64,000 bases of DNA from an uncultured Rikenellaceae bacterium (GCA_963696805.1 CAVOLF010000009.1:120-64119), one strand, 5' to 3'. Positions 21,101-37,229 are shown, counted from the first letter of the stretch. A program made the numbers and translations. Notes: generated by a model from the sequence alone, not told the origin.

Positions 21101-22986
21101 GGTGGCACTACAGGCTCGAGATCACCGGTCCGTGCGGGCTCTACTACACCCGCGAGGCACTGTTGACGGTCAACGCATGGCCTACGGCACAGATTGCGCC
21201 TGTCGATACGCTCCTCGTCTGCGGCGGCGTGCCCACACAACTGCACGGTAATCCTGCAGGAGGCTCACTGGTATACACGAACCACAGATGGTTCGGAGAT
21301 ATCGGGCCGCTGAGCCAGTTCAACATCGAGAATCCCGTGTTCAACACCTCCATGGCCGGCTATTACAGGCTGACCTACCAGGTGACCGACAGCAAGGGAT
21401 GCATGGGGATTGACACGCTGGTGGTTGAGGTTGAAAAACCGGTTGCCATGTTCACGGTAGATAATCCATCGGGTTGTCAGCCGCTGACAGTCAACTTCAC
21501 CAACGGATCCTCAGGTTATGTGTCGGTCCTCTGGAACTTTGGAGACACTCAGACTTCGACAAATGTCAGCCCGACGCATACATATCCTAATCTAGGACCT
21601 ACCCTGGCTAATTATACAGTCAGGCTGGAGGTCACCTCAGCCAACGGATGCGTTTCGTCAATGGAGAACAACATAACCGTCTTCCCGGAGATCCTCTCTG
21701 ACTTCATCATGAGCAATGACACCATCTGTTCCGGCGAGAGCGTCACCTTCTCGACGGTGCCGACCGCCCTGAACTACCACTGGACTTACGGGGACGGTAA
21801 CGTGGAGACCGGTTCGAATGTCATCAGCCATATATACTACAACAATACCACTGCCCCGGTGACTTACAGTGTCAAGCTGAGGACCGAATCGTTCTTCGGT
21901 TGCATCAGTGAGACAACGGTGCCGCTGGTTGTCTATCCGAAACCGGTACCTGCATTTGTTGCCGCTCCGGCGTCGCAGATCTTCCCGGCTGCCACCGTCA
22001 CTTTCACAAACAATACGAACGCGGGCACATGGAACTGGCTGTGGAACTTCGCTGACGGCAACACATCGCCTGTGGAGTCACCGGTGTATACCTATGCTGC
22101 CCCGGGCGACTTCAACGTGAGCCTGACAGTCAGCAACGGCGTCTGCACGGAGGTGGTGACTCACCTTGTAAGGGTTCTGCCTACTCCGCCGATTGCCGCT
22201 TTTGACTCGATACCGTCAGGCTGTATGCCGTGGAGGATTACACCAAACAACACCTCACTGTATGCCACAACATACTACTGGGACTTTGGTGACGGGTACA
22301 CATCCAATGCTGCCAGTCCGACATATACCTATGTACAGCCGGGCACATACCAGATCACACTGTATGTCACCGGTCCGGGCGGGAATGCCTCGACCTCAAG
22401 GATAGTCAATGTCTATCCTTCACCCAGGGCCTACTTTGATGTCTCGCCGCCAAAGGTATATGTCAACGATGAGGATGTGAGGATGTTCAACCTCACTGAC
22501 GGCGGTTCGAGCTTTATCTGGGAGTTTGGTGACGGCGACACGTCGCATTTGCGCGATCCGTTCCACAGGTACACCACCGAGGGCATCTATGATATCACGC
22601 TTCATGCCTACTCTGAGAACGGGTGCTATGACACCTACATAAAGTCGCCCGGAGTGACTGTAGAGCCTTTCGGAGACCTTATCTTTGCCACGGTCTTCAA
22701 GCCCAACCCCGACGGTCCGATAGAGATCGATGAGCTGCCCAACAGCGGTGAAGAGATGGATATGTTCTTCTTCCCGCCGATCAGGGAGACCGTGCTTGAA
22801 TACCATATGCAGATCTTCAACCGGTGGGGTACGCTGATCTTCGAGACCTATGACATCAACAGGCCATGGAACGGCTATTACAAGGGCACTCTCTGCCAGC
22901 AGGGTGTCTATGTATGGCTCGTGGAGGGCAAGTATGCCAACGGCAGGCCGTTCAAGAAGGCAGGAGACATCACGCTGCTCCATTGA
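6134..22986 (+). CDS. Giant repeat adhesin (~5,600 aa if reassembled) with PKD-like, SprB-like and Ig-like repeats and a type B T9SS (gliding-motility-associated) C-terminal domain; many frameshifts before 13486
   Basis: Signal-peptide-like start at 6134; overlapping ORFs 6297..8603, 8585..9880, fragments to 13476, then an intact 3166-aa ORF ending F.PN.DG...IFNRWG...WNGYYKG...GVYVW...GDITLLH. Confidence 0.85.
9870..11290 (+). repeat. Five ~280-bp coding tandem repeats (PKD-like domains)
   Basis: TVNP.GQVNDPADQVRCNGAATAAVNF.TNRSGGTTTY.W.NNNTSIGL recurs at ~9875, 10150, 10430, 10712 and 10997. Confidence 0.85.
14260..17825 (+). repeat. Fourteen ~252-bp (~84 aa) coding tandem repeats
   Basis: Unit A.ADD..IGTCP.S...L...GGEPGYTY.W.P..GL......P.AKP..TTTYTVTVTD.NGC counted 14 times. 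Confidence 0.9.
18880..21175 (+). repeat. Eight Ig-like coding repeats
   Basis: PEI..QP.....C.....F.V.A......YQW......W......Y.G.....L......M.G..YRV...G.C recurs 8 times. Confidence 0.8.
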
Positions 22987-23013: not shown

Positions 23014-23042
23014 GCAGAGGCGCCCGTTGTGGGCGCCTCTGT
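23014..23042. terminator. GC-rich hairpin between convergent genes (likely terminator)
   Basis: GCAGAGGCGCCC-gttgt-GGGCGCCTCTGT inverted repeat; a second shorter copy at 23091-23111. Confidence 0.55.
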
Positions 23043-23122: not shown

Positions 23123-23302
23123 TCAACTGAATGGCTTGTCGGAGAAGGGGGATGAGAAGGGGCTGGAAGGGTCGCTCTTGCTGTCCCTCCTCCTGGGCGG
23201 AGGGTTGGGCGGCGCGGATGTCATCATGACAAGGGAGATAGAGTTGTCAAGCTCTATGCGGATCACCGCGGGCCTGACATATCTTCTCTTCTTCCTTTTC
23301 AT
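23123..23302 (-). CDS. 59-aa putative RiPP-like precursor peptide
   Basis: MKRKKRRYVRPAVIRIELDNSISLVMMTSAPPNPPPRRRDSKSDPSSPFSSPFSDKPFS; basic N-terminus plus YxxPxV leader motif; own -7 promoter box and downstream hairpins. Confidence 0.72.
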   Translation of the reverse strand: MKRKKRRYVRPAVIRIELDNSISLVMMTSAPPNPPPRRRDSKSDPSSPFSSPFSDKPFS

Positions 23303-23323
23303 TGACTGACTGATATTGCGCCT

Positions 23324-23331
23324 CAAATATA
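23324..23331 (-). promoter_or_regulatory. Bacteroidetes sigma70 -7 box for the small peptide gene
   Basis: TATATTTG (TAnnTTTG consensus) 21 bp upstream of the ATG at 23302. Confidence 0.6.
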
Positions 23332-23565
23332 AGGCATTTGATTTATACCCTTTTAAACATTTATCAACCGGTTATGTTCGGTTTGCCGTGTGCTGACTAT
23401 CTTGTTGATACTCTCTATTCACGATATTCTATTATTCTCTTTCTGCATACCGGTTAAACGGTCAACACCATTCTTTCCTTCTATCTTAATTAACGCTCCC
23501 TGAACCTGGTTATTTGGTCAATAGCATCTTTATATGTATCTCCTATTCCGCTCCTCTATGCCAGC

Positions 23566-26309
23566 TTATCTGGTCAATACTATCTTTTCAAGATATCTTT
23601 TTGGTCCGACCGTGACCTCCACTATAAGAAGGCCCCCGGCAGATGACATATAATACTCTTTCAGCTCCCCGGAGTTGAAACGCTCGTCATTTTCGGCAAC
23701 AAGCATCCTTCCGGTTATATCGAAGATCCTTACCTTTCCGCTGATGCCATCCCAGTCGGGACCCTGAGGCAGAATACATACTTTTCCGGATGAGGAGTAA
23801 ATTTTCAGGGAGCTGCCCTCCTGTCCGGGTTCATTCCTGAGTCACTGCGGATTTTTCAACAGGTGAGATTGTCAGGGTGAACCTGTCGGAGAATGTCCCT
23901 TCCGGCAGGGAGAAGGAGTATTCCGACCAGGCAAGGAGGTCCACGCTCTTGCCTGCCAGGCGGTCAGTAAGGATGATATTGTAATTTCCTATTGCCTGCA
24001 GCTGGCTTCTTTTGATCTTGAAAGTGCCGGCTTCAGGGTATGATTGACCGTAAGCGGGATGACTGTCGCTTTCTCAGGCCAGGGGATGGAGTTGATCGAG
24101 TACTTTTCTCCCCCAGAACGGAGAATAGCTTAGCGCTTTTTACGACCGGATTGAAGATCTTACCCGCATCGAACTCGATGATCGAAACCAGTGGTGGCGG
24201 CAGGGTCAAACCTGATGACCATCTCATCCTGTGATGACGATGAACCAGTGCAGCCTCAGCAGGGGTATCTGCTGTGATGATTTGAACCTGGGTGTTGCAT
24301 TATGTTCACGGGCGTTGTCGGGAATGTTGAGCCAGGTGCCTGTGGCGCGGGTTTTTACGAAGAAACCCTGCATCGGCGGCAGGTGTGCCGTGCCTCCGTT
24401 GGTCCCGACGCCGTTGACGTATGATGCCTCGCCGGTTTCGGTGCGGATGTAATAGGCATCCCTGACGTTGCTGTCGGAGAACGGTGACTGCATCCCAGTT
24501 GATGCCGCAGGTGAGGGAGTTGCCGAGCAGTGAATAACCGTAGAGCGAGGTGTCTCCGCCCGAGCCGCTGAACGGAAGGTTTATCTGTCCGAGGGATGTG
24601 GTAAGCGACTTAAGGTTCGCGTAGATCATTGTTGCGTCCTCGAAGACAAGGACATTGTATCCTTTTTTGGCCTCAAGGTTACTGAACGGGGTTGTTCCGT
24701 CATAACCGTCGTGCCACTGCCATCCTTCGACCACACTGGTAAGCACCTTGCTCTCATCATAGCTCAGCAGGTTCTCCGGCTCGATGTCGGTGAACACTGT
24801 CTTGGAGACAGTGGCCGGGGAGGCAATATAGTGCCATCTGTCGATCTCCGGGGGGGCGCTCTTGAGGAAGAGCGCCACATTGAGGTTGCCCGCTGCTCCC
24901 GTGTAGCTGTCAGTGAGCAGCGACGCCATGGCGGTCTCGTCTGCACGGAGCTCAACGGTGCCATTATTTGTAAGTGATGTGAAGGTCACCCTGGCCCCGG
25001 GCTCGACGATCATCCTCAGGCCGGCATTCAATGTGAAGGCAGGGCCGGGAACATTAACCGGGTAGTTTGCCAGTCCGGCAGGAATGACAACGTTCCTGGC
25101 TCCCGGAGGAAAGGTTCCATCCCAGTTCTTGGGATACGTCCACGATGTGCCGAAACTGCCGTTCCAGCGGCTGTATATCATCTCGTAGGCTCCCCTGTCA
25201 GGAATATGGATACGTGATGAACTGACGATGTCACTCGTTGGGATGGTGATGCCCGGATAGGTTTCTGCACCGCTGTCACGCAACAGGGATATAAATGCGA
25301 TGTTGAAGTTGCCGGTGGAAGGGTCGATGAAATTGGGTCCGTCAGCGGCACTGTTCACGCTGTTGAGAGTAAAGTTGCCGGCATATGAAGCGCCCTCTAT
25401 GGCATTGTATGCCAGTACAGACGACGGGGTGCCGTTCAGTCCCACATGGTTCGCACCGCCCCAGATAACAGTGTTGACAACGATTGCTGCCGGGGAGTTC
25501 TCAAGGTAGAGCGAGGTTCCATCACCGGCCGGAGAGGAGCTGTTGACTATGGTTGAGTTGACAATCCTTGGTGCCGCAGAGAGCGAAGCCACTGTTCCTC
25601 CCTTGAGGGTCAGTGATCCGGAGCTGTTGCCGCTGAAGAGGGAGTTCTCAATGAGAGGTGATGACCCTGCATCGGTATAAATGGCACCTCCCTGTATAAT
25701 CGCACTGTTATTCAGGAAGGTACAGGCAGAGATGGTGGGTGTGGCGCCGCTGATGACAGCGATAGCCCCGCCCCTTTCAGCGACACAGTTACGGAAGGTT
25801 GAGTTTGAGACAGTCACTGCTGACGATGCCAGACGCAGTCCTCCTCCGAGCAGACCAAACTTGAAGAAGTCTTTTCTGCCACTCTCATGAGTACAGTAGC
25901 TCAGCCGGCTGGTGCCGGATGAATTGATGTTGATGTTACCCCAGTATTCGCCGGGCTCACCGTTGATACCGTCGAGGTCGATGTCGCATGTGAAGAGGAT
26001 CGGGCTAGTCTTTGTTCCGACAGCCTGTATCTGGCCGGTGTTGGTAACAAATATGGAAGCTCTGCTCTGAACAGCTATGAGTGTTGCCCCGGCGCTGACA
26101 GTAAGGACCTCATTGTCAACGTATATGTTCCCATTGAAGTATTTCGTTCCGGAAATGGTAAAATTACCGGCGAGAAAACCGCTGTATGGATTTGCCATAG
26201 AGCCGTCTCCTACCAACTGCCCTGATAACGGCAATAATGACAGTAAGGACATACAGGTGAACAGAAAGCCACCTTTTATGCCAAGCCTTGCAAGTTGTCC
26301 TGTTTTCAT
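23566..26309 (-). CDS. T9SS type A cargo with parallel beta-helix / choice-of-anchor-like repeats; frameshifts in ~23820-24490
   Basis: Start MKTGQ with signal peptide (LSG-Q); FRNCVAERGGAI and FLNNSA..GGAIY repeats, IVNSTIVN, GPNFIDP...DRGAYE; PMQGFFVK; C-terminal KIYSS...VRIFDITGRML...LLIVEV...KIVLTR* with stop at 23566-23568. Confidence 0.75.
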
Positions 26310-26365
26310 CCTTAAATAGATAGCCCTGTATTTTCTTATATAACTGATAGAATCCGAAATTGTTG

Positions 26366-26460
26366 CAAAAGTAAGAATTCTCTCCTCTCCGGCAATAGCT
26401 GTGCCGGTCAATTAAGAACAATTGCATAGGAGTTATGAATAGCTCTTCTTGCTATCTTTG
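26366..26460. promoter_or_regulatory. Divergent sigma70 promoters (T9SS cargo gene / ABC exporter)
   Basis: TACTTTTG on the minus strand at 26366-26373 and TATCTTTG on the plus strand at 26453-26460. Confidence 0.55.
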
Positions 26461-26477
26461 TGAATATCACTGTTAAG

Positions 26478-28274
26478 ATGAAGCTGCAGCGGAAGATCAT
26501 ATCACGTTCACTCACGATGCTTATGAAAAGCTCCCGCACGGAGACGGCGGCAAGCCTTATAATTCTCATTGTCAGGTCATTTCTTCCCCTGGTTGCACTT
26601 TTTCTGATAAGATTTTTTGTTGACGCTATAACAGGTACCGCAGGCGAGGCCGCGGTCTCATCGACAGAAGCCTCATCACCAGCCGGGTTCACCTGGCTCA
26701 TACTGGCCATGGCGATGGTACTGCTTGCCGACGACCTGCTGTCGTATGCCGGGCACTACCTGGCAAAGAGACACTCATACCTGGTTGAGGGGCATATTTC
26801 ATCACTGATACACAACCATGCCAACAGCCTGGGGTTAAGGTTCTTTGAGGATCCGCTCTTCCATGACAGGCTGGCGAGGGCTGCGACGGACATCTCGTGG
26901 AGGCCCGCGGCGATGATCAATGACCTGGTCCTTCTGATGCGCGGGGTGGTCTCATTCATTGCGATGGGATATGTACTGAGGACCTTTGGCATTATCCCTC
27001 TGGCAGTGCTGGTAGTTGTATTCATCCCGGTTCTCCTGATCAGGTCGCGCTATTCCGAAAGGATCTATCGCACAAGAAAGAGAACCACCGAGGACAACCG
27101 TCAGGCGTCATACTTCAGCTGGCTCCTGACGGGAGAGAAGCCGGCGAGGGAGGTTAGGCTCTTTGATCTGGGGGGCTATTTTGAGAGACTGTTCCGTAAA
27201 CACTTCAGCGCCTCACGGGAGCCCGAGATTACTGATGCCGGAAAGAGCATCATCCCTGACAGCATTGCTTCAGTTTTAAAGATGGCGGCCTTTGCCGGCG
27301 TGCTTGTTTATGCCACCACCTCTTACCTGAGATCGTCCATCACTGCTGGCGAACTGGCAATGTATGTGGTTGCCTTCAGGCAGGCACTGGTATACCTTCG
27401 TGACACGGTCACCGGTTACTCGGGACTGGCGGAGAACAGCCTCTTTTTGCAGGACCTGTTCCGGTTCCTTGATATGCAGAGCGATATGGCAGGTGGGGAG
27501 AAGGCGCCGGAACCTGTCTCATTCAGCGATATCACCGTCGAAAACATGACCTTCACCTATCCGGGGGCTTCAGGACCGGCCTTGCAGGATATCAGCCTGA
27601 AGATAACCAGGGGCGAAAAGGTGGCTGTTGTAGGGCCGAACGGGTCGGGCAAGACCACGCTGGTCAAACTTCTGTGCAGGCTTTATGACCCTGACAGCGG
27701 CCGAATCATGCTCAATGGCGGGAATATTGATGCAATTGATCCTTCCGGTTACCGAAGACTGTTTTCAGTTGTTTTTCAGGACTTCATGCTTTATTTTCTG
27801 AGCGCGGGAGACAACATCCGGCTGGGGGCGGCAGACGGAAACGAAGACCCGGAGCGTCTCAGGGATGCGGCTGCCAGGGCCGGGCTGGCCAGCCTGCTTG
27901 AGAACCTCCCGGAGGGTTATGAGACCCTCCTCGGTCATCATACAGAGGGGGGGCGTGAGCTCAGCTGGGGCGAGTGGCAGAAGATTGCCATTGCCAGGGC
28001 TATTTACCGCGAGGCACCGGTGCTGATCCTTGATGAACCGTCATCGTCGCTTGATGCCGACTCAGAGTACGAAATATTCTCTGATCTGGGTAAGATCACT
28101 GCAGGGAGAACATGTATCTTCATCAGCCACAGGCTTTCAAACGTCAGGGAGGCTGACAGGATCATAGTCCTCGATCAGGGGCGGATCGCAGAATCGGGGA
28201 CTCATGAGGAGCTGATGACAGCCCGTGGCAGGTATTTTTCGATGTTCACCAGGCAGAAATCGATGTACAGGTGA
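26478..28274 (+). CDS. ABC exporter (fused TMD + NBD, no C39 peptidase domain), peptide-exporter type
   Basis: Multiple TM helices, REVRLF, Walker A GPNGSGKT, VVFQDF, LSWGEWQKIAIARA, LILDEP, ISHRLS. Confidence 0.9.
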   Translation: MKLQRKIISRSLTMLMKSSRTETAASLIILIVRSFLPLVALFLIRFFVDAITGTAGEAAVSSTEASSPAGFTWLILAMAMVLLADDLLSYAGHYLAKRHSYLVEGHISSLIHNHANSLGLRFFEDPLFHDRLARAATDISWRPAAMINDLVLLMRGVVSFIAMGYVLRTFGIIPLAVLVVVFIPVLLIRSRYSERIYRTRKRTTEDNRQASYFSWLLTGEKPAREVRLFDLGGYFERLFRKHFSASREPEITDAGKSIIPDSIASVLKMAAFAGVLVYATTSYLRSSITAGELAMYVVAFRQALVYLRDTVTGYSGLAENSLFLQDLFRFLDMQSDMAGGEKAPEPVSFSDITVENMTFTYPGASGPALQDISLKITRGEKVAVVGPNGSGKTTLVKLLCRLYDPDSGRIMLNGGNIDAIDPSGYRRLFSVVFQDFMLYFLSAGDNIRLGAADGNEDPERLRDAAARAGLASLLENLPEGYETLLGHHTEGGRELSWGEWQKIAIARAIYREAPVLILDEPSSSLDADSEYEIFSDLGKITAGRTCIFISHRLSNVREADRIIVLDQGRIAESGTHEELMTARGRYFSMFTRQKSMYR

Positions 28275-29738
28275 TGGAAGCAACCGATACACCCGGGGAT
28301 ACTGCCGACAAAAGCAAGGAGAGGCTTGCCAGCGATAACCGGAAGAGGGCATCTGGCGATATGACAGAATGTACGCCAGGCGACAGCCGTGAGAGGGAAG
28401 CCTCCCCTAAGGATGAAACAGTTACAGGCAACAACCGGGAGCAGACCGCCGGAAGTCACCTGACGGGCACAGATGATATTAACCGGGCGAAGGCAGCCAG
28501 CCTGCTCCTGCTGCTGAGCAGGGTTGAATTCACTGATGAGGAAAAGCTGCGTTTAAGGCAGGAATGCAAATTTTTCGACATATGGAAGCTGTTCACCCAC
28601 CTGGCTGTAAGGCACGGTGTGGCAGCGCTGATATGGCAGAACATATGTGATCTTTCCCTTGACGGGCATGTGCCGGGGCCTGAACAGACAATTCTTGAAG
28701 GATTAAGGTTAAAGTCGATTGCCAGGGTGGCATACATCACCAATACAGCCGCAGAGGCGGTTGATATTCTTGAGAAGAACGGGATAAGGGTTCTTCTGCT
28801 CAAGGGACTTGCCCTGGAGCATACGGTTTACGGCTCGAGGGGACTGAGGCAGATGAGTGATGCAGACCTGCTTGTCGCTCCGCGCGATGCGCTGAGAGCA
28901 CGGGATATACTTGCCGGTGCCGGCTTTGCATCGATGCCCATGAAGTCACGATTATACAGACACATAATGCTTGACCTGGGCAACCACCTTCCCGAGATGC
29001 ACCGGGGAGGGATATCGGTTGACCTCCATTACCGTCTCTTCGGGACAGAAGGCGAAGAGATGGTCAGCAGGGCGATAAGGGAGGCCGAGAGAATCTCAGC
29101 CGGAGGAAAGACTTTCCATGTACTGCCTCCGGTGTCATCGTTCCTGGGGCTGGTCAGCCATATTTACAAGCATGAGGTCAAGGGAGAGTTTCAACTGAGG
29201 CTCTACGCAGATATATATCTTCTCCTTAAAAAGCACGGAAGCGTGATCATCAATAACGAACTGATGACGGCAGCGGAACAGGCTGGCATTCCTTCTGAAG
29301 TCCGGGTGGTTATGACCGTTATGGAGCAGGTATGGGGCCTTGATCTGCCCGGAGAGACGAAAGCCCGACCCGGGGAGTTGAAGGCCCTGCCGGCGGAGAT
29401 GAAAGCCCGACCGGGAGGTGAAGGCCCTGCCGGCGGAGATGAAAGCCATGCCAGGGGAGGAGCAGAGAAAAGCCGACCGTTTCATGCATGATCTGATGTA
29501 CCCGGGACTTATCACTCCTGAGAGCCAGCGTGAAATGTTCACCAGGAACCTGCATTCCATGAAGGGATTTAAGAAGAAACTGATATTCATTACCGGCGAT
29601 ATTTTCCCCTCGGTTGATTTCATGAAGCGAAGGTACGGATCCCGGTCAACCCTCTCAGCCCTGTTGCGTTATCCGCACAGGTTCGGCAAGCTGTTTTGGA
29701 TTTTTAGTCCCGAAAGAGGCCATAAACGGGACAAATAA
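28274..29738 (+). CDS. Uncharacterised nucleotidyltransferase (NTP_transf_5-like), frameshift within a tandem repeat at ~29410
   Basis: LLLKGLAL, RQMSDADLLV and VDLHYRL motifs; C-terminal IFPSVDFMKRRY; start overlaps the ABC stop (TGATG). Confidence 0.8.
29346..29460 (+). repeat. 42-bp (2 x 21-bp) coding tandem repeat
   Basis: GAAAGCCCGACC..GG(A)G.TGAAGGCCCTGCCGGCGGAGAT repeated; encodes KARPGELKALPAEM. Confidence 0.8.
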
Positions 29739-29766
29739 TACGAAAATCAAAATTTTAGTAAAATTC

Positions 29767-29810
29767 TTCTCAATTTATTTGCTAATTGAGAAAATATTTT
29801 TTTAATTTTA
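29767..29810 (+). promoter_or_regulatory. Sigma70-like promoter overlapped by a perfect 9-bp inverted repeat
   Basis: TTTG(29778-81)-N21-TAATTTTA(29803-10); TTCTCAATT-N8-AATTGAGAA at 29767-29792. Confidence 0.45.
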
Positions 29811-29814
29811 CTTT

Positions 29815-30040
29815 AGTCAACTTTTTTTTAGTCAATGTCATGTAAGGCTTATTGTCAGATGTTATTTAAAACGCGACAGAATGGAAACTACTCGTCTGAA
29901 GTCTACGGTTGAATAGCGCTCAAAGGGGAAAAGGCGCTTCATTAGCGCGTCTCGCTGCATGATTCGTCTCTTCCGGCGGGAAAGGTTGTATTCATTGTCG
30001 CTTTGCTGCCCCGGATCGAAAAGGTCCGGGGCAGTTTTCT
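29815..30040 (+). ncRNA. Candidate ~220-nt small RNA or small-ORF transcript
   Basis: Bracketed by a promoter-like element and an intrinsic terminator; no long ORF (25-aa sORF at 29835..29912). Confidence 0.35.
30006..30040 (+). terminator. Rho-independent terminator
   Basis: CTGCCCCGGATC-gaaaa-GGTCCGGGGCAG followed by TTTTCT. Confidence 0.75.
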
Positions 30041-30100
30041 GCTCTGCCTGTTCCGCGCCTTTGCTTCAAAAGCATTACTTTTGCACAAAGAGCCGATGAG

Positions 30101-31570
30101 ATGAAAAGAGCACTCTATCTACATAACACCCTTACGCGCAGGAAAGAACTGTTTGAGCCGCTGGCTCCTCCCTTCGTCGGCATGTATGTCTGCGGTCCGA
30201 CGGTCTACAGTGAGGTGCACCTGGGTCATGCCCGTCCTACCGTGACCTTCGACGTGCTCTACAGGTACCTCATGCACCTGGGTTATAAGGTGCGGTATGT
30301 ACGCAATATTACGGATGTCGGGCACCTGGAGAATGAAGTTGATGACTCCGGTGAGGACAAGATAAGCCGCAGGGCCCGCCAGGAGAACATGGAGCCGATG
30401 GAGATAGTCCAGAAGTACATGAACAGCTATCATACGGCCATGGATAAGCTCAACACTCTGGCCCCGTCGATAGAACCCCGGGCAACAGGGCATATCATTG
30501 AACAGCAGCAACTGGCCGGGAAGCTGATCAAAAGCGGGTATGCGTACGAATCGAACGGCTCGGTCTATTTTGATGTTGAGAAGTATGACAATGAGCATTC
30601 GTACGGTATCCTTTCGGGCAGGGTACTTGAGGATATGCGTGCCAACAGCCGCCCCCTGGAGGGGCAGGATGAGAAGCGCGGCCAGTTTGACTTCGCCCTG
30701 TGGAAAAAAGCCTCTCCCGGCCATATAATGAGATGGCCCTCCCAATGGAGCGACGGTTTCCCGGGATGGCACCTCGAGTGCTCGGTGATGAGCACCAAGT
30801 ACCTGGGTGACACCTTTGACATCCACGGCGGCGGAATGGATCTTATATTCCCCCACCACGAGTGTGAGATTGCCCAGAGCACTGCAGCACAGGGTCACCA
30901 GCCGGTGCGTTACTGGGTGCATAACAACATGGTCACCATCAACGGCCAGAAGATGGCGAGGTCACTTGGCAACTTCATCACCCTCGAGGAACTCTTCACC
31001 GGCTCGCATAAGCTGCTCGTGCAGGCCTACTCGCCGATGACCATCCGCTTCTTCATGCTCCAGGCGCACTACCGCAGTACACTCGACTTCAGCAATGAGG
31101 CCCTGCTGGCGGCATCACTGGGACTGCAGAAGCTTCTCTCTGCGGAGCGCACCCTGGCGAACCTCAGTCCTTCTGACGCATCAACCGCAGACACAGGAGG
31201 CATTGCACAAAAGTGTTATGAGGCCATGGGTGACGACCTGAACACGCCGGTAGCTATAGCCCAGCTCTTTGATGCCGTCAGGATCATCAACCTGGTTAAT
31301 GACGGCAAGGAGCGACTGACAGCGGCTGACATCGATTCGCTTAAGGAGCTTTTCAGGATATTCGTTCATGAGCTCTTCGGCCTCAGGCCCGAGGAGACTG
31401 TGGGAAATGACAAGCTTGCTGGGGTGCTGACCCTGCTGCTCGATATGAGGCAGGAGGCCAAGGCCAGAAAGGAGTGGAGCGTCTCGGACCGTATCCGCGA
31501 CAGGCTGAGCGAACTTGGCATCACGGTGAAGGACCGCAAGGATGGTTATGACTGGGAGATAACGATGTGA
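30101..31570 (+). CDS. cysS: Cysteine--tRNA ligase
   Basis: [15 protein letters not shown] (HIGH), [28 protein letters not shown] (KMSKS); TACTTTTG box at 30076-30083. Confidence 0.97.
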
Positions 31571-33263
31571 AAGTTATTCACTACAGATCAGAGGTTATTA
31601 AGATCGGCAGCCTGACGCTGGGAGGAGATCTCCCGGTGCGTGTTCAGAGCATGACCAGCACCGACACCCTTGACACTGCCGGAAGCGTCAGCCAGTGCAT
31701 CCGTATCATCGAAGCCGGAGGTGAGCTGGTGAGACTGACGGCACAGGGTGTCAGGGAGGCGGAGAACCTCGCAGTCATAAAAAGTGAACTGCGTAAGGCT
31801 GGCTTCGATACTCCGCTCTGCGCCGATATCCACTTCAATCCCGCTGCGGCCGAGGTGGCTGCGCGTATAGTCGAAAAGGTGCGGATCAATCCCGGCAACT
31901 ATGCCGACAAGAGGGCTTCATTCATCAGGCAGGAGCTCTCTGAGATTGAATACCTGGCTGAGCTGGAACGCATCAGGGAACGGCTGTTGCCCCTTATGCA
32001 CATATGCTCTGAGAACGGTACTGCAGTGCGCATCGGGGTGAACCACGGCTCACTCTCCGACCGCATCATGACACGGTACGGCAACACGCCGGAGGGGATG
32101 GCCGTCTCGGCCATCGAGTTCCTGAAGATCTTCAGGGATGAGGGCTTCCGCAACCTGGTGGTCTCGATGAAGTCGTCAGACACCCGCGTGATGGTTGAGT
32201 CAAACCGTCTTCTTGTCAGGATGATGGCTGAGGAGGGGATGCGGTTCCCGGTTCATCTCGGCATTACTGAGGCCGGGGAGGGCGAAGACGGCAGGATCAT
32301 CTCGGCTGCCGGTATCGGAACCCTACTCTCGGAGGGCATCGGCGACACGATAAGGGTCTCTCTCTCAGAAGCACCGGAGAGGGAGATTCCTGTTGCCAGG
32401 GAGATCATCAGCGCCGTGGCCGGTCCGGCAGGGAGGGTGAAGACACCCTCATCCCCGCTACCGCAAAGAAAGGACGGTGAACGTTATTACCCGCAGGTAT
32501 ATTACGAGCGGGGGGGCAACCTTTCCAAGGAGAGGGCTGGCGGTATCCGGAATAAGAAGGGCAGCAGTCTCCCGAATGAGCAGGGGGCAGTCTCCCGAAT
32601 GAGCAGGGCGGCATCTTTGTTACTGATCAGGATGGCATTTTTATCGATGAACAGGGAGGTATGCATGAGGTTGAGGTGGTGACGCTGGAGGCGGATGAGC
32701 TGAAGCGCTGCTGTCATCTGCAGGCATACAACGCAATACTTAATCCCCTCTTCAATGAGGATGATCCTGAGAGGCTTGCCATTGATGCGGCATCACTGCT
32801 GGGCAGGTTCTTCATAGCCCGCCAGCCTGCAGGGTTATGCATAAACAACAGGGGGGCAGTTCAGGGAGAGGTCCTCCGCAGGCTTGCCTTCTCCATCCTC
32901 CAGGCCACAGAAGCACGCATAACACGCACAAGGTATATCTCATGCCCCACCTGCGGACGTACAAAATTCAATCTTGAGGAGGCTGTTCGCAGGGTCAAGG
33001 CCGGCACGTCACATCTAACCGGCATGAAGATAGCAGTGATGGGTTGCATAGTCAATGGTCCGGGTGAGATGGCCGGTGCCGACTACGGCTATGTAGGCGC
33101 GGCTGAGGGGAAGGTGCATATTTACCGCGGCACCGAGGTAGTGCTGAAGAATGTCCCGGAGGCCACGGCGCTCGCCAGATTACTGGAACTTATTGAGAGC
33201 GATCAGGCAACTGAGAGCAAACAGGCAAGTGACCCGGTAAGCAAGAGCAACCGGGCCAGGTGA
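31567..33263 (+). CDS. ispG: (E)-4-hydroxy-3-methylbut-2-enyl-diphosphate synthase, frameshifted in a repeat-rich insert (~32500-32660)
   Basis: [44 protein letters not shown]; C-terminal ISCPTCGRT and [11 protein letters not shown]. Confidence 0.93.
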
Positions 33264-33287
33264 GGCAAGTCAGGGAGGTAATAGCGA

Positions 33288-35414
33288 TCAGGCCAGTCGG
33301 TAGTCGAGCTGTCTCTTCTGCAGATCGGCTTTTGCCACTTCCACATTGATCTTGTCACCGAGCATGTAGACCTTGCCCGATTGCCTGCCCCTGATGCAGT
33401 AGTTCACCTCGTCATATTCAAAGTAGTCATCCTGCAACTCCCTGATGGCGATCATTCCTTCGCACTGGTTCTCGATGATCTCAACATAGATACCCCATTC
33501 CGTCACTCCCGAGATGACCCCCTCGAACACCTTTCCGATCTTGTCACTCATGAACTCCACCTGCTTGTATTTGATGGAGGCCCGTTCGGCGTCGGTGGCC
33601 AGCCTCTCCCTCTTTGACGAGTACTCGCACAACTTGGCATACTTATCCTTGTCGCGTGCAGGTTGTCCCTCAAGGTATTTTGTCAGGAGGCGGTGCACCA
33701 TCATATCCGGATAACGTCTGATGGGGGAGGTGAAGTGCGTGTAATGGCTGAAGGCAAGGCCGTAGTGACCTATGTTGTCTGTGGAATAGATTGCCTTGGC
33801 CATGGAGCGCAGGGCGAGGGTCTCGATAATGTTCTGCTCCTTTTTTCCTGAGACATTGTCCATGAGTTTGTTCATGGCTGCGGGAAGCCCCTTCACATTT
33901 TCAGTGTCAAGCTCATAGCCGAACCGTTTGATGAAGTAGCTGAATGAGCTAAGTTTCTCAGGATCGGGTTTGTCATGGATGCGGTAGACGAAGGTCTTCC
34001 CGCTCATCTTTTTGCCGACCTGCTCCGCAACGCGCCTGTTGGCCAGCAGCATGAACTCCTCTATGAGCTGGTTGGCTGTCCCGAACTCGCGGAAGAGTAT
34101 CCCCAGGGGTACCCCCTTCTCGCTCAGGTTGAACTTGACCTCAAGCCGTTCGAATGCAAAGGAGCCTGAGGCGAAGCGCCGGCTGCGAAGGGTCTGCGCC
34201 ATGCTGTTAAGGGTCAGGAGCTGCTCTTTCATGTCGCCCTCGCCGGTGTCAATGACCATCTGGGCTCCGGCATATGAGAAGCGCTTGTCTGACCTGATGA
34301 CAGTGCGTCCGAACCACTCCTTCACCACATTGGCCTTGCTGTCGAGCTCAAAGACGGCTGAGTAGGTGAGTTTGTCCTCATCGGGATTGAGTGAGCAAAT
34401 ATGGTTGGAAAGCCGTTCCGGGAGCATCGGTATGGTCCGGTCAACCAGGTAGACCGAGGTGGCGCGTTCCTGGGCCTCCTTTTCAATTACCGACCCTGTC
34501 CTGACGTAGTGGGTCACGTCGGCAATATGCACGCCTACCTCCATATTCCCGTCAGGAAGTCGTCTCAGCGAGAGCGCATCATCAAAGTCCTTGGCATCCT
34601 CTGGGTCGATGGTGAAAGTAGGCACCTCGCGGAAGTCGCGGCGTGCCGCAATCTCCTCGGGGGTTATCTCTGCCGGAATCTTTTCGGCTGCAGCTTCGAT
34701 CTCTGGATCGAACCTGTTGGGGAGGCCGAACTCGGCAAGTATGGCATGCATCTCGGTGTCATTTTCACCCGGATTGCCTAAAACCTCAATTATCTCACCC
34801 ACGGGGTTCCGCGAACGCTGATCCCATTCCACCAGCCTTGCCACGGCCTTCTGCCCCTGTTTTGCTCCGTTAAGCTTTGCCAGGGGGATAAAGAGATCAA
34901 AAGGCATATTTTTATTGTCAGGCATAAGGAAGGCAAACTGTTTTGTCAGTTCTATGGTGCCTACGAATGTTGCCCGTGAACGACTGATGATCTCAACCAC
35001 CTCTCCCTCGGGCCTCTTGCCCTTGTGCCGTGCATAGAGGAGGACTTTCACCTGGTCGCCGTGAAGGGCGGTGTTTAGGTTGCGGGCCGCAATGAAGACA
35101 TCGTCCTCGGATTCTTCGGAGATCACGAATGCATAACCGAATTTGGTAAGGTCGATGGTGCCGGTCACATATCCTCCGACAGACTTCAGTATGTATTTGC
35201 CGTGGTTTCTCTCTTCTGTCATTCCCTCTTTCATCATCCGGATGAGTGCATCGGAGAGAGCCCTTTTCTCTTCCTTCTCCGTTATTTTCAGCCGTGCGGC
35301 TATCTGTTTGTAATTGAGAGGCTGTTTCGGGTTTTTGCCCATCGCCTTTGTGATGAGTTCAATTAGACTCTTCTGGTCTATGCCAGGTTTTTTCTCCTGT
35401 TTTTTTCTTGCCAT
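33288..35414 (-). CDS. rnr: Ribonuclease R
   Basis: TIDPEDAKDFDDALS, HIADV, LIEEFMLLAN, HFTSPIRRYPD, C-terminal S1 domain. Confidence 0.96.
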   Translation of the reverse strand: MARKKQEKKPGIDQKSLIELITKAMGKNPKQPLNYKQIAARLKITEKEEKRALSDALIRMMKEGMTEERNHGKYILKSVGGYVTGTIDLTKFGYAFVISEESEDDVFIAARNLNTALHGDQVKVLLYARHKGKRPEGEVVEIISRSRATFVGTIELTKQFAFLMPDNKNMPFDLFIPLAKLNGAKQGQKAVARLVEWDQRSRNPVGEIIEVLGNPGENDTEMHAILAEFGLPNRFDPEIEAAAEKIPAEITPEEIAARRDFREVPTFTIDPEDAKDFDDALSLRRLPDGNMEVGVHIADVTHYVRTGSVIEKEAQERATSVYLVDRTIPMLPERLSNHICSLNPDEDKLTYSAVFELDSKANVVKEWFGRTVIRSDKRFSYAGAQMVIDTGEGDMKEQLLTLNSMAQTLRSRRFASGSFAFERLEVKFNLSEKGVPLGILFREFGTANQLIEEFMLLANRRVAEQVGKKMSGKTFVYRIHDKPDPEKLSSFSYFIKRFGYELDTENVKGLPAAMNKLMDNVSGKKEQNIIETLALRSMAKAIYSTDNIGHYGLAFSHYTHFTSPIRRYPDMMVHRLLTKYLEGQPARDKDKYAKLCEYSSKRERLATDAERASIKYKQVEFMSDKIGKVFEGVISGVTEWGIYVEIIENQCEGMIAIRELQDDYFEYDEVNYCIRGRQSGKVYMLGDKINVEVAKADLQKRQLDYRLA

Positions 35415-35436
35415 TTCAAGCTTGATTTTACTGTTT

Positions 35437-35465
35437 CAAAGATAGGCTGAAATTGGCTATCTTTG
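35437..35465. promoter_or_regulatory. Back-to-back -7 boxes for rnr and the PqqD-like gene
   Basis: TCAAAGATAG...CTATCTTTGA inverted repeat, i.e. TATCTTTG on each strand. Confidence 0.6.
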
Positions 35466-35481
35466 AGTTGATTATAAATAA

Positions 35482-35772
35482 ATGATATCACTCTCTTCAG
35501 TACCATCGCATTCACCTGATGTTGTTTTCCGCAGGATCAACGACGAATTTCTGCTGATTCCCCTTACGGACAATATTGCCGATATGGATTCGCTTTACAG
35601 GCTGACTGAGACCGGTGCTTTTATCTGGGAGCTGATAGACGGCGAGCTTGCCATCAGTGATATAACGTCAAAGGTAGCAGAAGAGTTCGATGTTGAGCAG
35701 GATGTTGCAGAAAAAGACATTCTCGGTTTTTTCGGAGAGGTACAGGATTTCCTTCATTTCAGGGAGCGGTGA
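35482..35772 (+). CDS. Stand-alone PqqD-family protein (RiPP recognition element)
   Basis: 96 aa; VVFRRINDEFLLIP...LYRLTETGAFIWELIDG...I...VAEEFDV...A.KDI..F matches the PqqD/RRE pattern. Confidence 0.85.
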   Translation: MISLSSVPSHSPDVVFRRINDEFLLIPLTDNIADMDSLYRLTETGAFIWELIDGELAISDITSKVAEEFDVEQDVAEKDILGFFGEVQDFLHFRER

Positions 35773-37229
35773 CTGTTGATCTTATCATAGCCGGCAGGAT
35801 GATCCGCCTGCAGTCGGACGATGGCATCACTCTCAGGCCCGATGATCGGTTCAGCTCTTTCATTGCGGCGGTGTCAGGCAATATTGGTGCGTCCGGGAGC
35901 GCAGCAGAGGGACCCGGGGAGGCTGATCTTCCGGAGCCGGAGCTGACAAAAGATACAGAGGTTGGCCTGAAGACAGTGGCTGATCCCGGGCTGACCGAGA
36001 CACCCGGACCGGAGCTGACCGAGACGCCCGGACCGGAGCTGACGGTTGATGTCTTTCCGGGAAGGTTGGCAATTCCGGCTGATGCGAAAAAGGTGTTTGA
36101 CGCCCGTCTGATGGAGGAGGCCCCTGACGGGCCGCGCGATACCGGCGAGCCATTCTGGGAGATACTGACGGGGGAAGGTATGACCTTTGCTAAAGTTTAT
36201 CTTAAGGATCCCGTATGCAATCCTGTTCTTGTCATGCCAGATGGCAAAAAGACCTGGCAGATCTTCGCTGACAGCCAGGGCCCTGATGCCAACCCCCTGC
36301 CTTATCCGCTCGACGGGCTGCTGCTATACTTTTTAACATCGGCAGCCGGGGACATAATGATACACGGCTCGGGCACGGTATGCGGAGGCCGCGGATGGAT
36401 TTTCACGGGGCGTTCAGGCAGCGGCAAAACCACTGTTGCCGGGATCTTTGACCGGGCAGGAGACAGGGTTATACATGACGACAGGCTTATCCTGAGAAAA
36501 GAGGAAGATGGCTGGGTGATGCACAGCACGCCTGTCTACCGCAATGATGAACCGCGGAGCGCTGCTGTAGATCGTCTCTGGGGCATAGCGCACGGCAGGT
36601 CTAATATCTCAACTCCTGTCACCGGGGCCGAGGCGGTTGCAATGGTGATGTCAAACTGCGTGCAGCAGAACCGGGACAGGGAAGCTGCATTACGGCTGGC
36701 AGCCGCGGTTGAGGAACTGGTGTCATCCGTCAGGGTGAGCCGGCTTTCATTCATGCCTGATGGCAGCCTGCGTGATTACCTTATTGCCAGGGAATCGGGC
36801 AATGCAGTCACGGCGGCAGAGGCTGCCTCTGCCATACTGGCCGGAGAAAAGCCGGTGACAATTACTGCCGGCGGCTATAGCATGTGGCCGGCGATCAGGC
36901 CCGGAGACCGTATAGTGATAATGCCGTATGATCATCAGATACCCCTGGCAAAAGGTATGGTTGTGGCACTCAGGCGTGACGGCGGGTTCGTCGTTCACCG
37001 GGTCACAGATTACCGGAGAGGCCAGTTCATGAATTTCATCCGGACACGGGGAGATGCAGGGATAATATATGATCCGTGGGTCCCAACCGGTGATGTGGCC
37101 GGCCTGGTGAAGAAAGTGACGGAAGACAACAAAACGATAATGATCAGTCCGCAGCGCATGCCATATTACATAGGAAGCCTTGCCGTGGCACTGATAAAAA
37201 TATGGGATGCGATCAGGAGGAGATTCTGA
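35769..37229 (+). CDS. HPr-kinase-related (ScmC-like) P-loop kinase fused to an S24/S26-family peptidase
   Basis: IHGSG, Walker A GRSGSGKTT, IHDDRLILR, MHSTP; C-terminal GYSMWPAIRPGD, VVHRV, TRGD; GTG start overlaps the PqqD stop (GTGA). Confidence 0.75.
   Translation: MTVDLIIAGRMIRLQSDDGITLRPDDRFSSFIAAVSGNIGASGSAAEGPGEADLPEPELTKDTEVGLKTVADPGLTETPGPELTETPGPELTVDVFPGRLAIPADAKKVFDARLMEEAPDGPRDTGEPFWEILTGEGMTFAKVYLKDPVCNPVLVMPDGKKTWQIFADSQGPDANPLPYPLDGLLLYFLTSAAGDIMIHGSGTVCGGRGWIFTGRSGSGKTTVAGIFDRAGDRVIHDDRLILRKEEDGWVMHSTPVYRNDEPRSAAVDRLWGIAHGRSNISTPVTGAEAVAMVMSNCVQQNRDREAALRLAAAVEELVSSVRVSRLSFMPDGSLRDYLIARESGNAVTAAEAASAILAGEKPVTITAGGYSMWPAIRPGDRIVIMPYDHQIPLAKGMVVALRRDGGFVVHRVTDYRRGQFMNFIRTRGDAGIIYDPWVPTGDVAGLVKKVTEDNKTIMISPQRMPYYIGSLAVALIKIWDAIRRRF
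35925..36045 (+). repeat. 24-bp in-frame tandem repeat (PGPELTET)
   Basis: CCGGAGCTGACCGAGAC(A/G)CCCGGA copies with decaying upstream versions. Confidence 0.75.

Follow-up and report, generated by a model that had tools for sequence, protein, structure and literature searches.

A dispersed Bacteroidales gene set resembling the linear polyphosphorylated peptide pathway, with a candidate precursor family encoded behind type IX-secreted surface proteins

Linear polyphosphorylated peptides (LPPs) are a RiPP family encoded by clusters of Bacillota such as lppA-K-B-S-D-N in Paenibacillus alginolyticus (Popov et al., Nat Commun 2026; PMC13381572). The gene set comprises an RRE of PqqD type, a kinase resembling HprK, an S26 peptidase of Sec11/SipW type, a PF14907 nucleotidyltransferase (the supplement assigns LppN to this family) and an MsbA-like exporter, without a cyclase, and biochemical work on the Paenibacillus set demonstrated a linear, polyphosphorylated product that has lost its leader (Popov et al., 2026; PMC13381572). 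LPP leaders follow the consensus YxxPxVLxHQxIxFETxxS, within which YxxPxV is the RRE-binding motif of both LPP and lasso leaders; position D70 of LppB, the Tyr-binding Asp, selects Tyr leaders, and the kinase LppK does not accept Thr (Popov et al., 2026; PMC13381572). The family was stated to be restricted to Bacillota, its function was left open, its clusters are also located in capsule loci and Supplementary Data 1 places the five Bacteroidota RREs under 'RRE others', outside the LPP group (Popov et al., 2026; PMC13381572).

We analysed a stretch of 64,000 nucleotides from an uncultured Rikenellaceae bacterium, here called the window, whose source genome is 92.8% complete in 13 contigs. A sequence-only reading had proposed that five elements within 14 kb (a peptide with a YxxPxV leader, a PqqD protein, a kinase-peptidase fusion, a nucleotidyltransferase and an ABC exporter) form a new RiPP-like system. 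All five were recovered where they had been placed, on the evidence of open reading frames, Pfam, NCBIfam, profiles and a fold model, and are listed here together with a hairpin and a neighbouring surface-protein gene:

23015..23041, minus strand: terminator-like GC-rich hairpin 3′ of the peptide gene (consensus scan; 11-pair stem, 9 GC pairs)
23123..23302, minus strand: candidate precursor peptide gene, LppA-like (59 aa; motif Y8-x-x-P11-x-V13)
23569..26333, minus strand: gene for a type IX-secreted beta-helix surface protein (PF13229 Beta_helix, 1.1e-12)
26460..28274, plus strand: MsbA-like ABC half-transporter, LppD-like putative exporter (PF00005, 2.3e-30, and PF00664)
28271..29738, plus strand (ORFs 28271–29491 and 29418–29738): PF14907 nucleotidyltransferase, LppN-like (5e-40)
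35482..35772, plus strand: stand-alone PqqD-type RRE, LppB-like (PF05402, 9e-14)
35769..37229, plus strand: predicted 486-aa fusion protein, HprK-like kinase followed by Sec11/SipW-type S26 peptidase (profiles, fold model)

The 14 kb span holds by coordinates; contiguity does not, since the type IX-secreted beta-helix gene lies between the peptide and ABC genes, and cysteinyl-tRNA synthetase (CysS), IspG and RNase R genes lie between the nucleotidyltransferase and PqqD genes. The set is therefore in three pieces and not in one cluster with the precursor, as it is in relatives of other families. Within each enzyme pair the neighbouring frames share 4 nt, the nucleotidyltransferase frame with the ABC gene at its stop codon and the fusion frame with PqqD.

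We consider it probable, at roughly 0.8, that the window carries a dispersed Bacteroidales version of the LPP pathway. This reading is based on homology, gene linkage and co-occurrence, and from it we infer binding, the phosphorylation site, the cleavage site and the product. Points against it are the placing of Bacteroidota RREs outside the LPP group in the published supplement, the departure of the leader from the LPP consensus beyond YxxPxV[IL], Thr at the conserved position 28 of the peptide where LppK takes no Thr, Thr42 of the PqqD protein at the position of LppB N33, the repeat that interrupts the nucleotidyltransferase, and the gaps in co-occurrence and adjacency described below. Because the five elements match the LPP gene set, the biology first proposed for the locus, a pathway without a cyclase for a linear, phosphorylated, perhaps decorated peptide that is cut by a signal-peptidase-like domain and exported, is supported by gene content, although the system can no longer be called new in kind, the LPP family having been published in May 2026 (Popov et al., 2026; PMC13381572).

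The fusion protein has no Pfam match, and its NCBIfam matches are weak (archaeal-type signal peptidase I, TIGR02228, 5.9e-7; HprK-related kinase B, TIGR04355, 6.4e-4). As a single sequence it reached only E ~0.1 against the PDB and profiles were needed: that of the kinase half matched HPr kinase (1jb1, 1.7e-5), and that of the peptidase half matched SEC11C (2.6e-10) and SEC11A (3.2e-9). An AlphaFold model (pLDDT 87.8) resembles the PEPCK and HprK/P folds. The kinase half, approximately residues 1–345, has a Walker A motif at G214–T222 and HDDR at 236–239, with the Walker A and DD motifs invariant in the kinase alignment, and includes a disordered repeat insert at residues 37–77. The peptidase half, approximately residues 346–486, has Ser371, His410 and Asp429/Asp435; the Ser, the His and a Gly-Asp are invariant among the eight sequences aligned, and the catalytic spacing (39 from Ser371 to His410, 25 from His410 to Asp435) is identical to that of S29/H68/D93 in LppS. 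Taken together, profiles and model indicate that the two halves correspond to the HprK-like kinase and the SipW/Sec11-like Ser/His/Asp leader peptidase of the LPP set. Outside the genus, the kinase and peptidase are encoded by separate adjacent genes.

The top NCBIfam model for the exporter is MsbA (3.4e-88, under the model's cut-off). The nucleotidyltransferase is split into two frames in this assembly because of a 40-nt repeat at 29378–29419; its parts share one frame in another genome (G030), and the frames are joined in a public contig without the 40 nt. A frame break is present in IspG as well. In relatives, the ABC gene is either downstream of the S26 gene or fused with it, the S26 leader-peptidase domain being located at the exporter N-terminus in four loci (L049, L137, L140 and L148), which suggests that cleavage is coupled with export in these relatives. 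A peptidase-ABC fusion of Paludibacter propionicigenes, with an RRE next to it, is listed in the published supplement (Popov et al., 2026; PMC13381572). The natural kinase-peptidase and peptidase-ABC fusions point to steps that work together.

The closest PDB sequences to the window PqqD protein are PbaB1 (9x90, 5.4e-4) and LppB (9x8z, 4.7e-3), and its match to the ScmD model is weak (25.5 bits). Asp79, which is nearly invariant, aligns with D70 of LppB and Q79 of PbaB1, an equivalence based on sequence alignment and on an inferred numbering offset of 18; the position of LppB N33 is occupied by Thr42 in the window protein and by Asn in most relatives. Structure prediction of the PqqD protein together with the peptide, from alignments that we supplied, gave a score of 0.54 (best of three controls, 0.02), with at least 96% of contacts in agreement between runs and a partner pLDDT of at least 50. 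Of 157 solved complexes 116 reach the mark applied, as do 2 of 215 mismatched pairs, while scores of 0.60 or below account for only 18 of the 157 solved complexes plus both passing mismatches. As like complexes have already been solved, the pass may reflect the predictor's prior exposure to them, and we regard the predicted complex as weak support for leader binding.

The 59-aa peptide itself (MKRKKRRYVRPAVIRIELDNSISLVMMTSAPPNPPPRRRDSKSDPSSPFSSPFSDKPFS) matched no family in Pfam or NCBIfam. Its profile had no match among PDB sequences at E ≤ 10, so that direct alignment with the LppA leader was impossible. It belongs to a family without a name, represented by 47 loci in a search of genome contigs and by 983 protein clusters, and is kept in 11 of 12 same-genus loci with a mean column identity of 85%. 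Across 27 family members YxxPxV[IL] is conserved, and the rest of the leader follows the pattern ..I.[IL]D..[IV]S[LI].M.[ST]; the corresponding conserved positions in the window peptide are D19, a small residue at 23, Met26 and Ser/Thr at 28. Residue 28 is the sole Ser/Thr position kept across the whole family and is Thr in the window's genus. The C-terminal part is a Pro/Asp-rich tail with PF motifs at the end, and the description of the peptide as Ser-rich does not extend to the family, some members being almost devoid of Ser in this part. Directly after the peptide stop codon, about 60 nt upstream of the terminator-like hairpin listed above, is a near-duplicate of that hairpin. We propose from these alignments and gene positions that this large, defined family is the candidate substrate for LPP-like cassettes of Bacteroidales.

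By analogy with the Paenibacillus system, the PqqD protein would bind Y8-x-x-P11-x-V13 of the precursor and the kinase half would phosphorylate a Ser/Thr beside the leader-core junction, for which residue 28 is the candidate. The S26 half (Ser371/His410/Asp) would then remove the leader, cutting either after residue 23, where the spacing from the Tyr to the cut would be as in LppA, or after the Met-x-Ser/Thr at 26–28, which resembles the Phe-Glu-Thr of LppA; among the 27 family members no Ser is conserved at +3 from either candidate cut. The PF14907 enzyme may attach a further group, and the MsbA-like transporter would carry the Pro/Asp-rich product over the inner membrane. Rearrangement within the genus would have put the exporter and nucleotidyltransferase pair beyond CysS-IspG-RNase R and fused the kinase with the peptidase, with the precursor gene left apart, behind the gene for the type IX-secreted surface protein.

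Comparison with other genomes shows that the two enzyme pairs of the window correspond to the halves of one cassette, which relatives keep in a single piece. The order PqqD-kinase-S26-ABC-nucleotidyltransferase is uninterrupted, and adjacent to RNase R, IspG and CysS, in G063 and G064 (L127 and L128), and is likewise contiguous in G045 (L049). The split order of the window is present in 12 of 13 same-genus loci, the thirteenth being a short contig. Elsewhere in the order, the peptide gene is located about 0.6 kb or less from the kinase gene on the same strand in 13 genomes representing 10 other Bacteroidales families, and a further family member (in G059) is preceded by a PqqD gene at a distance of 12 nt. 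Genomes of the genus that are without the fusion are also without the peptide (5 of 5 checked), and three of these five (92, 95 and 75% complete) are without PqqD and PF14907 as well. Since the genes are contiguous in other genomes and the peptide family adjoins the kinase elsewhere, the grouping goes beyond chance. That unrelated genes merely happen to lie within 14 kb of one another, as the four unrelated genes interrupting the set in the window might suggest, is scarcely credible and conflicts with the comparisons already made: other families have the genes side by side, the genus retains the split order and the parts disappear jointly.

Of 301 genomes sampled evenly from the order, 31 had a match to the peptide profile and 47, by our count, had one to the kinase profile at a threshold of E ≤ 1e-20; the kinase figure shows that this toolkit is common among Bacteroidales. 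The kinase is present in 25 of the 31 peptide genomes and in 22 of the 270 others, figures that overstate independence because the genomes are related. The remaining six peptide genomes (G108, G204, G218, G244, G318 and G322; 82–100% complete) have no strong kinase match. Outside the order the kinase family is sparse, being found in six genomes among 301 sampled from the phylum, a sample that includes only eight genomes of the same order. The expectation that the five genes co-occur across Bacteroidales, contiguously in some genomes, and that peptide homologues adjoin PqqD and kinase genes was thus borne out.

The assignment of the peptide as substrate has one competitor of some weight, namely that the enzyme cassette is genuine but acts on another, unseen peptide, the 59-aa peptide being a partner or regulator of the type IX protein. 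The peptide's constant neighbour is indeed a cargo gene, located upstream of it at 45 of the 47 loci; within the clade of the window, the precursor never adjoins the enzymes (it is 18–79 kb away or on another contig in G061–G065); and, in addition to the six peptide genomes without a strong kinase match, 22 of the 47 kinase genomes have no peptide of the same family. Against this, the 11 adjacent loci that we fetched place the peptide gene between PqqD and the kinase in nine cases and just before PqqD in two, the leader carries the YxxPxV motif to which RREs bind in LPP and lasso leaders, and peptide and enzymes are lost together in the genus. We consider this alternative unlikely, and retain the peptide as the probable precursor of the dispersed LPP-like pathway.

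The cargo gene directly upstream of the precursor gene in the window is out of frame at several places in its 3′ third in the assembly; intact orthologues of 919–934 aa align over three frames of the window, and public contigs differ from it by 1-nt indels at the frame breaks. Cargo homologues carry Por_Secre_tail. The C-terminal module of the cargo was considered as a feature specific to the system and rejected: it is present in 12 of 19 upstream cargos and in none of six same-locus controls, but it also matches 180 of the 301 genomes sampled from the order, mostly more than once per genome, which makes it widespread among cargos and no marker of the pathway. The module has no consistent Pfam family and Foldseek returned nothing at E ≤ 0.001; VIA-align of a 495-residue model, in which the domains were folded together, gave a best Z of 5.4, to adhesin/autotransporter beta-solenoid ends and CBM-like sandwiches, too weak to name a fold. 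In two metatranscriptome runs, the cargo gene, the ABC gene and the 150 nt immediately before the peptide gene are overlapped by a few short contigs of near-identical sequence; at a depth of 2–5, where DNA carry-over is possible, these were not counted as expression, nor was any meaning given to the stretches that no contig covers.

As a tentative suggestion, which we think possible and rather doubtful, the LPP-like peptides might be paired with type IX surface proteins: precursor genes, up to five per genome, would be located behind cargo genes and served by one shared kinase/peptidase/exporter set, and the phosphorylated Pro/Asp-rich product would act in the periplasm or at the surface, on the cargo or the anchoring of its glycan, rather than being released as a free antibiotic. 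Such coupling predicts what is seen in the window's clade, where the precursor remained beside the cargo gene, away from its enzymes, after the ancestral operon broke up. The constant position of precursors behind type IX cargo genes, and their proximity to glycan loci, offers a testable lead on the function of the peptide.

Those glycan loci also bear on whether a peptide is matured at all. In distant relatives, PF14907 genes and peptide loci are located amid polysaccharide genes, for Wza-like, Wzz, UDP-GlcNAc 2-epimerase, sugar transferase and NusG-like proteins, the transporter's best model is MsbA, and LPP clusters too occur in capsule loci (Popov et al., 2026; PMC13381572), from which it could be argued that the product is a surface component linked to lipid or glycan, modified and exported by the kinase, the nucleotidyltransferase and the MsbA-like flippase, with PqqD as a generic adaptor. 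However, the operon encodes a peptide of leader type and an S26 domain of the leader-peptidase kind, and in Paenibacillus the homologous genes have a peptide as their substrate (Popov et al., 2026; PMC13381572), which makes this reading very improbable beside the LPP-like pathway.

We also considered whether the product could be cyclised. There were no matches to the B2 protease family PF13471 in the 92.8%-complete genome, no Asn-synthase-like macrolactam synthetase was found near any part of the set, and the PF00733 matches in the genome are AsnB-like or weak. An Asn-synthase-like gene at window positions 1–1622 was rejected as a lasso cyclase: it has a GATase_7 domain, is accompanied by FemAB/GNAT and glycosyltransferase genes and is 22 kb from the peptide gene. 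The other strong Asn-synthase match in the genome is a 559-aa AsnB-like frame. With no PF13471 and only AsnB-like Asn synthases, a linear product is expected. The SynChlorMet cassette combines PqqD-like and HprK-like proteins with the radical SAM/SPASM enzymes ScmE and ScmF; a full-text literature search for 'SynChlorMet' found no paper. Two SPASM proteins, on contigs other than that of the window (C5 and C6), were rejected as Scm partners, their best models being an anaerobic sulfatase maturase (a fragment) and a generic maturase; the latter protein scored about 45 bits against ScmE/F, where the cut-offs are 400.

The sequence-only reading was therefore right that the locus has no lasso cyclase, B2 protease or SPASM enzyme, and the search of the whole 92.8%-complete genome for such a partner gave no lasso- or Scm-type candidate. 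An ordinary lasso or SynChlorMet-type pathway, with its cyclase or radical SAM enzyme elsewhere in the genome, could still be imagined given that a gene may be absent from an assembly of this completeness in 13 contigs, that the Asn-synthase-like gene and the two SPASM proteins exist, and that a radical SAM gene, sulfatase-maturase-like by eye, is located about 0.5 kb past the nucleotidyltransferase in one genome (G054, L047). Yet PF13471 is missing, the window Asn synthase with its GATase_7 domain belongs to a glycan context, the SPASM proteins are not Scm-like and the contiguous cassettes that we fetched are all without a cyclase, so that we judge such a pathway highly improbable, slightly more so than the lipid- or glycan-linked component considered above.

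Set beside the described systems, the locus shares with the SynChlorMet cassette the joint presence of PqqD-like and HprK-like proteins, and differs in that radical SAM/SPASM enzymes are missing beside it and every match to an Scm model is far under its cut-off. The likeness to the paeninodin and pseudomycoidin lasso clusters is greater, extending to an HprK-like kinase, a PF14907 nucleotidyltransferase, a PqqD-type B1 protein, an ABC exporter and a [Y/W]xxP leader, and no PDB sequence matches the window PqqD protein better than PbaB1. These clusters differ from the window, however, in having a macrolactam synthetase and a B2 cysteine protease, whereas leader removal in the window is predicted to depend on an S26 serine peptidase, and the C-terminal residue of the peptide family is not a conserved Ser. 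Peptidase-containing ABC transporters (PCATs) carry a C39 cysteine peptidase domain. The S26-ABC fusions of relatives are similar to PCATs in that a leader-peptidase domain is located at the exporter N-terminus, but this is a Ser/His S26 domain instead of a C39 domain; in the window, unlike in these relatives, the S26 domain is joined to the kinase and not to the exporter.

The closest likeness is to the LPP system, with the same five-enzyme set, a peptidase with identical catalytic spacing, no cyclase, a precursor with an N-terminal basic stretch followed by YxxPxV[IL], an RRE with Asp at the putative Tyr-binding position and a tendency of the clusters towards surface-glycan gene neighbourhoods. 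The differences are that the host belongs to the Bacteroidota instead of the Bacillota, and that the leader departs from the LPP consensus beyond YxxPxV[IL], with no Ser at core position 3. Gene organisation also differs, the kinase being fused with the peptidase in the window and the peptidase with the ABC transporter in relatives, while the cluster is in three pieces in the window's genus. As the Bacteroidales host is diderm, export would reach the periplasm only, and in this order the candidate precursor genes are located behind type IX-secreted cargo, often in several copies per genome. What is new relative to the LPP system is thus the split cassette with its fusion, a candidate precursor family and its type IX surface-protein neighbour.

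The window had been proposed from its sequence to hold a peptide-modification system of five elements, and ORF calling with domain searches identified every one of them: a precursor peptide with a YxxPxV leader, a PqqD-type RRE protein, an HprK-like kinase fused to an S26 peptidase, an ABC exporter and a PF14907 nucleotidyltransferase (NTase). The elements are therefore real, and they lie in three pieces with unrelated genes between them.

Genes of the candidate system and their neighbours in the window
23123-23302, - strand: peptide ORF, 59 aa
about 26333-23569, - strand (that of the peptide): beta-helix surface protein gene (the cargo), just upstream of the peptide gene
26460-28274, + strand: ABC half-transporter, transcribed divergently from the beta-helix gene
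28271-29491, + strand: PF14907 NTase, overlapping the ABC gene by 4 nt
30101-31570: CysS
31567-33263: IspG, in two frames
33288-35414, - strand: RNase R
35482-35772, + strand: PqqD protein
35769-37229, + strand: kinase-peptidase fusion, 486 aa, overlapping the PqqD gene by 4 nt
next gene after the fusion: MetH

Several of these genes are out of frame somewhere, namely those encoding IspG (31567-33263), the cargo (23569-26333) and the PF14907 NTase, as is an AsnB-like Asn synthase gene at 1-1622. Real decay in the strain represented by the window is the less likely explanation, as public contigs from a near-identical organism show 1-nt indels relative to the window at eight places in the cargo gene (23833-24482), one of which, at 24482, is the point of frame change, and in one such contig the 40-nt repeat found at 29378-29419 is missing, an absence that joins the two NTase ORFs. 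The frame breaks are thus probably assembly errors.

A gene for a 3166-aa repeat-rich surface protein (13486-22986, + strand) converges on the peptide gene, its end lying 137 nt from the stop codon of the latter, and giant adhesin genes also converge on the peptide gene in distant relatives (3035 aa in locus L099, 1936 aa in L101). Upstream of the 3166-aa protein gene is a run of PKD/Ig-domain ORFs (6297-13339, + strand) that may be further pieces of large adhesin genes. Genes of a glycan-type set stand at the contig start (1-5016); they encode the AsnB-like amidotransferase (GATase_7 and Asn_synthase), a FemAB/GNAT protein and part of a glycosyltransferase. The peptide and PF14907 genes of distant relatives have Wza, Wzz, epimerase, sugar-transferase and NusG-like genes around them.

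The fusion protein had no match in Pfam and only weak matches in NCBIfam. A profile of the kinase part, built from the fusion and nine homologues, best matched HPr kinase/phosphorylase structures (1jb1, 1.7e-5), and a profile of the C-terminal part matched catalytic subunits of the eukaryotic signal peptidase complex (SEC11C, 2.6e-10). Alignment with homologues revealed invariant Walker A and DD motifs in the kinase part and invariant G-x-S-M-x-P, H-R and G-D motifs in the peptidase part, and twelve same-genus orthologues retain both motif sets in one ORF. The AlphaFold model (27-row alignment, pLDDT 87.8, pTM 0.77) resembles the PEPCK and HprK/P folds. Much of the variation in length among the genus orthologues (432-533 aa) is probably due to a low-complexity insert with TETPGPEL repeats at residues 37-84 (35877-36020), within the kinase N-terminal domain, which the model shows as disordered (pLDDT below 50 for 37-66 and 70-77).

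Twelve of 13 same-genus loci share with the window the order ABC-NTase-CysS-IspG-RNase R(-)-PqqD-fusion, the thirteenth being a short contig. In other families separate genes encode the kinase and the S26 peptidase, and the whole set forms one run, an arrangement that the sequence-only reading had named as support: genome G045 combines PqqD-kinase-S26::ABC with an adjacent NTase gene and, among five more distant genomes bearing the peptide family (G061 to G065), G063 and G064 have CysS-IspG-RNase R(-)-PqqD-kinase-S26-ABC-NTase in a single run, the other three (G061, G062 and G065) showing intermediate arrangements. Comparison of these orders with that of the genus indicates that the RNase R/PqqD junction is old, and that the genus of the window has a relocated exporter-NTase pair and a fused kinase-peptidase gene. 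A different fusion, of the S26 domain to the exporter N-terminus (738-757 aa), occurs in several Bacteroidales families (L049 1716-3956; L137 11868-14084; L140 7360-9633; L148 5585-7837); its layout is PCAT-like, but a Ser/His peptidase replaces the usual cysteine peptidase. One further PqqD-kinase cassette, without a peptide of the window's family, is followed about 0.5 kb after its PF14907 gene by a radical SAM gene (L047 of genome G054, 13140-14408), by eye anaerobic sulfatase maturase-like, which may be unrelated or a sign of a radical-SAM variant.

The peptide is kept in 11 of 12 same-genus loci with 85% mean column identity, above that of its neighbours. Its family has 47 loci in the species-representative genome collection, all labelled as Bacteroidales MAGs except one Pseudomonadota, one 'metagenome' and several given only as Bacteroidetes. 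The peptide profile retrieved 983 protein clusters; among the matches listed, every named one is a 'hypothetical protein' and all are free of Pfam domains. Alignment of 27 members defines the motif K-x-x-Y-x-K-P-x-[VI]-x-x-I-x-[IL]-D-x-x-[IV]-S-[LI]-x-M-x-[ST], followed by a PP-x-DP-rich stretch and a variable tail, often with a (N)PF(K) end.

The decisive test of linkage was to search one even sample of 301 genomes from the order with both the peptide and the kinase profile. The peptide occurs in 31 genomes, with up to five copies each, and the kinase in 95 at E<=1e-5 or 47 (counted by hand) at E<=1e-20, weaker matches spanning the P-loop alone. The kinase is present in 25 of the 31 peptide genomes, no strong match being found in the other six, and no peptide of the window's family was found in 22 of the 47 kinase genomes. 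Peptide homologues adjoin the PqqD and kinase genes: in 13 genomes, spread over 10 families, no more than about 0.6 kb separates the peptide gene from a kinase gene on its own strand; among 11 fetched loci, nine have the order PqqD-peptide-kinase-S26-ABC and two peptide-PqqD-kinase. Within the clade to which the window belongs, no precursor gene adjoins the enzyme genes. Genome G059 encodes a 1292-aa secreted-type protein, PqqD and a peptide of the family in succession (L134, G059:C11, 2325-6658; gaps of 3 and 12 nt), with a kinase-S26-ABC cassette without PqqD on another contig. Five same-genus genomes checked that are without the fusion all lack the peptide; three also lack PqqD and PF14907, and the other two have PqqD and PF14907 genes 3-4 kb apart (G004:C289 2467-5963; G029:C59 33441-38137), which may represent a different peptide-maturation locus. 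Complex prediction for PqqD and the peptide scored 0.54 against 0.02 for the best control, weakly supporting their pairing.

The peptide gene is downstream of a homologue of the window's beta-helix gene in 45 of the 47 loci, the other two having no upstream sequence. Of 18 peptide genes outside the family for which the sequence reaches far enough upstream, 13 (a hand count) follow a large ORF (218 to 1951 aa, some cut by the contig end), either directly or with PqqD alone between. Several of these upstream ORFs carry, according to Pfam, a C-terminal domain for type IX secretion. The position of the precursor gene behind a surface-protein gene is an observation only. A module of about 450 aa is common to the cargo and 12 of 19 upstream proteins (0 of 6 controls); since it occurs in 180 of the 301 genomes, it was ruled out as a pathway marker. 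In distant relatives, small PF05635 genes ('23S rRNA-intervening sequence protein') are found repeatedly next to the cargo and peptide genes (L099 9442-9801; L100 7754-8131; L107 6318-6686 and 10947-11312).

In our literature searches, which included passages of a 2023 Bacteroidales RiPP-mining paper (PMC10352776), the Bacteroidales precursor family, the fusions and the type IX cargo link were nowhere described. The known system is that of the linear polyphosphorylated peptides (LPPs), for which Popov et al. (Nat Commun 2026, PMC13381572) describe Bacillota clusters, often within capsule loci, encoding a discrete RRE (LppB), an HprK-like kinase (LppK), a PF14907 NTP transferase (LppN) and an MsbA-like pump (LppD), with precursors of 35-200 aa bearing an N-terminal YxxPxVLxHQxIxFETxxS motif. 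Experiments reported there showed several phosphates on core Ser3, leader cleavage after Thr-1 by LppS (S29/H68/D93) and a requirement for LppB in this cleavage. The paper restricts LPPs to Bacillota; its Supplementary Data 1 includes five peptidase homologues from Bacteroidota that have RREs next to them, classed as 'RRE others' and with the precursors given as 'not determined', and the supplement lists, undiscussed, a 747-aa Paludibacter S26::ABC protein.

Among PDB sequences the window PqqD matches PbaB1 (9x90) and LppB (9x8z) best, and its Asp79 would occupy the position of the Tyr-binding Asp70 of LppB, given our numbering offset. The Ser371-His410-Asp435 spacing of the fusion (39 and 25 residues) is identical to that reported for LppS. 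By analogy, the leader may be cut after residue 23, a small residue, which would give the Tyr(-16) spacing of LppA, or after Met26-x-Ser/Thr28, resembling the Phe-Glu-Thr of LppA. Residue 28 is the sole Ser/Thr position kept in every one of the 27 aligned members, which makes it a candidate phospho-site if cleavage follows residue 23. Beyond YxxPxV[IL] the leader does not agree with the published Bacillota LPP consensus, whereas YxxPxV[IL] itself agrees with the LPP and lasso RRE motif, and the gene set of the window corresponds gene for gene to that of the LPP clusters.
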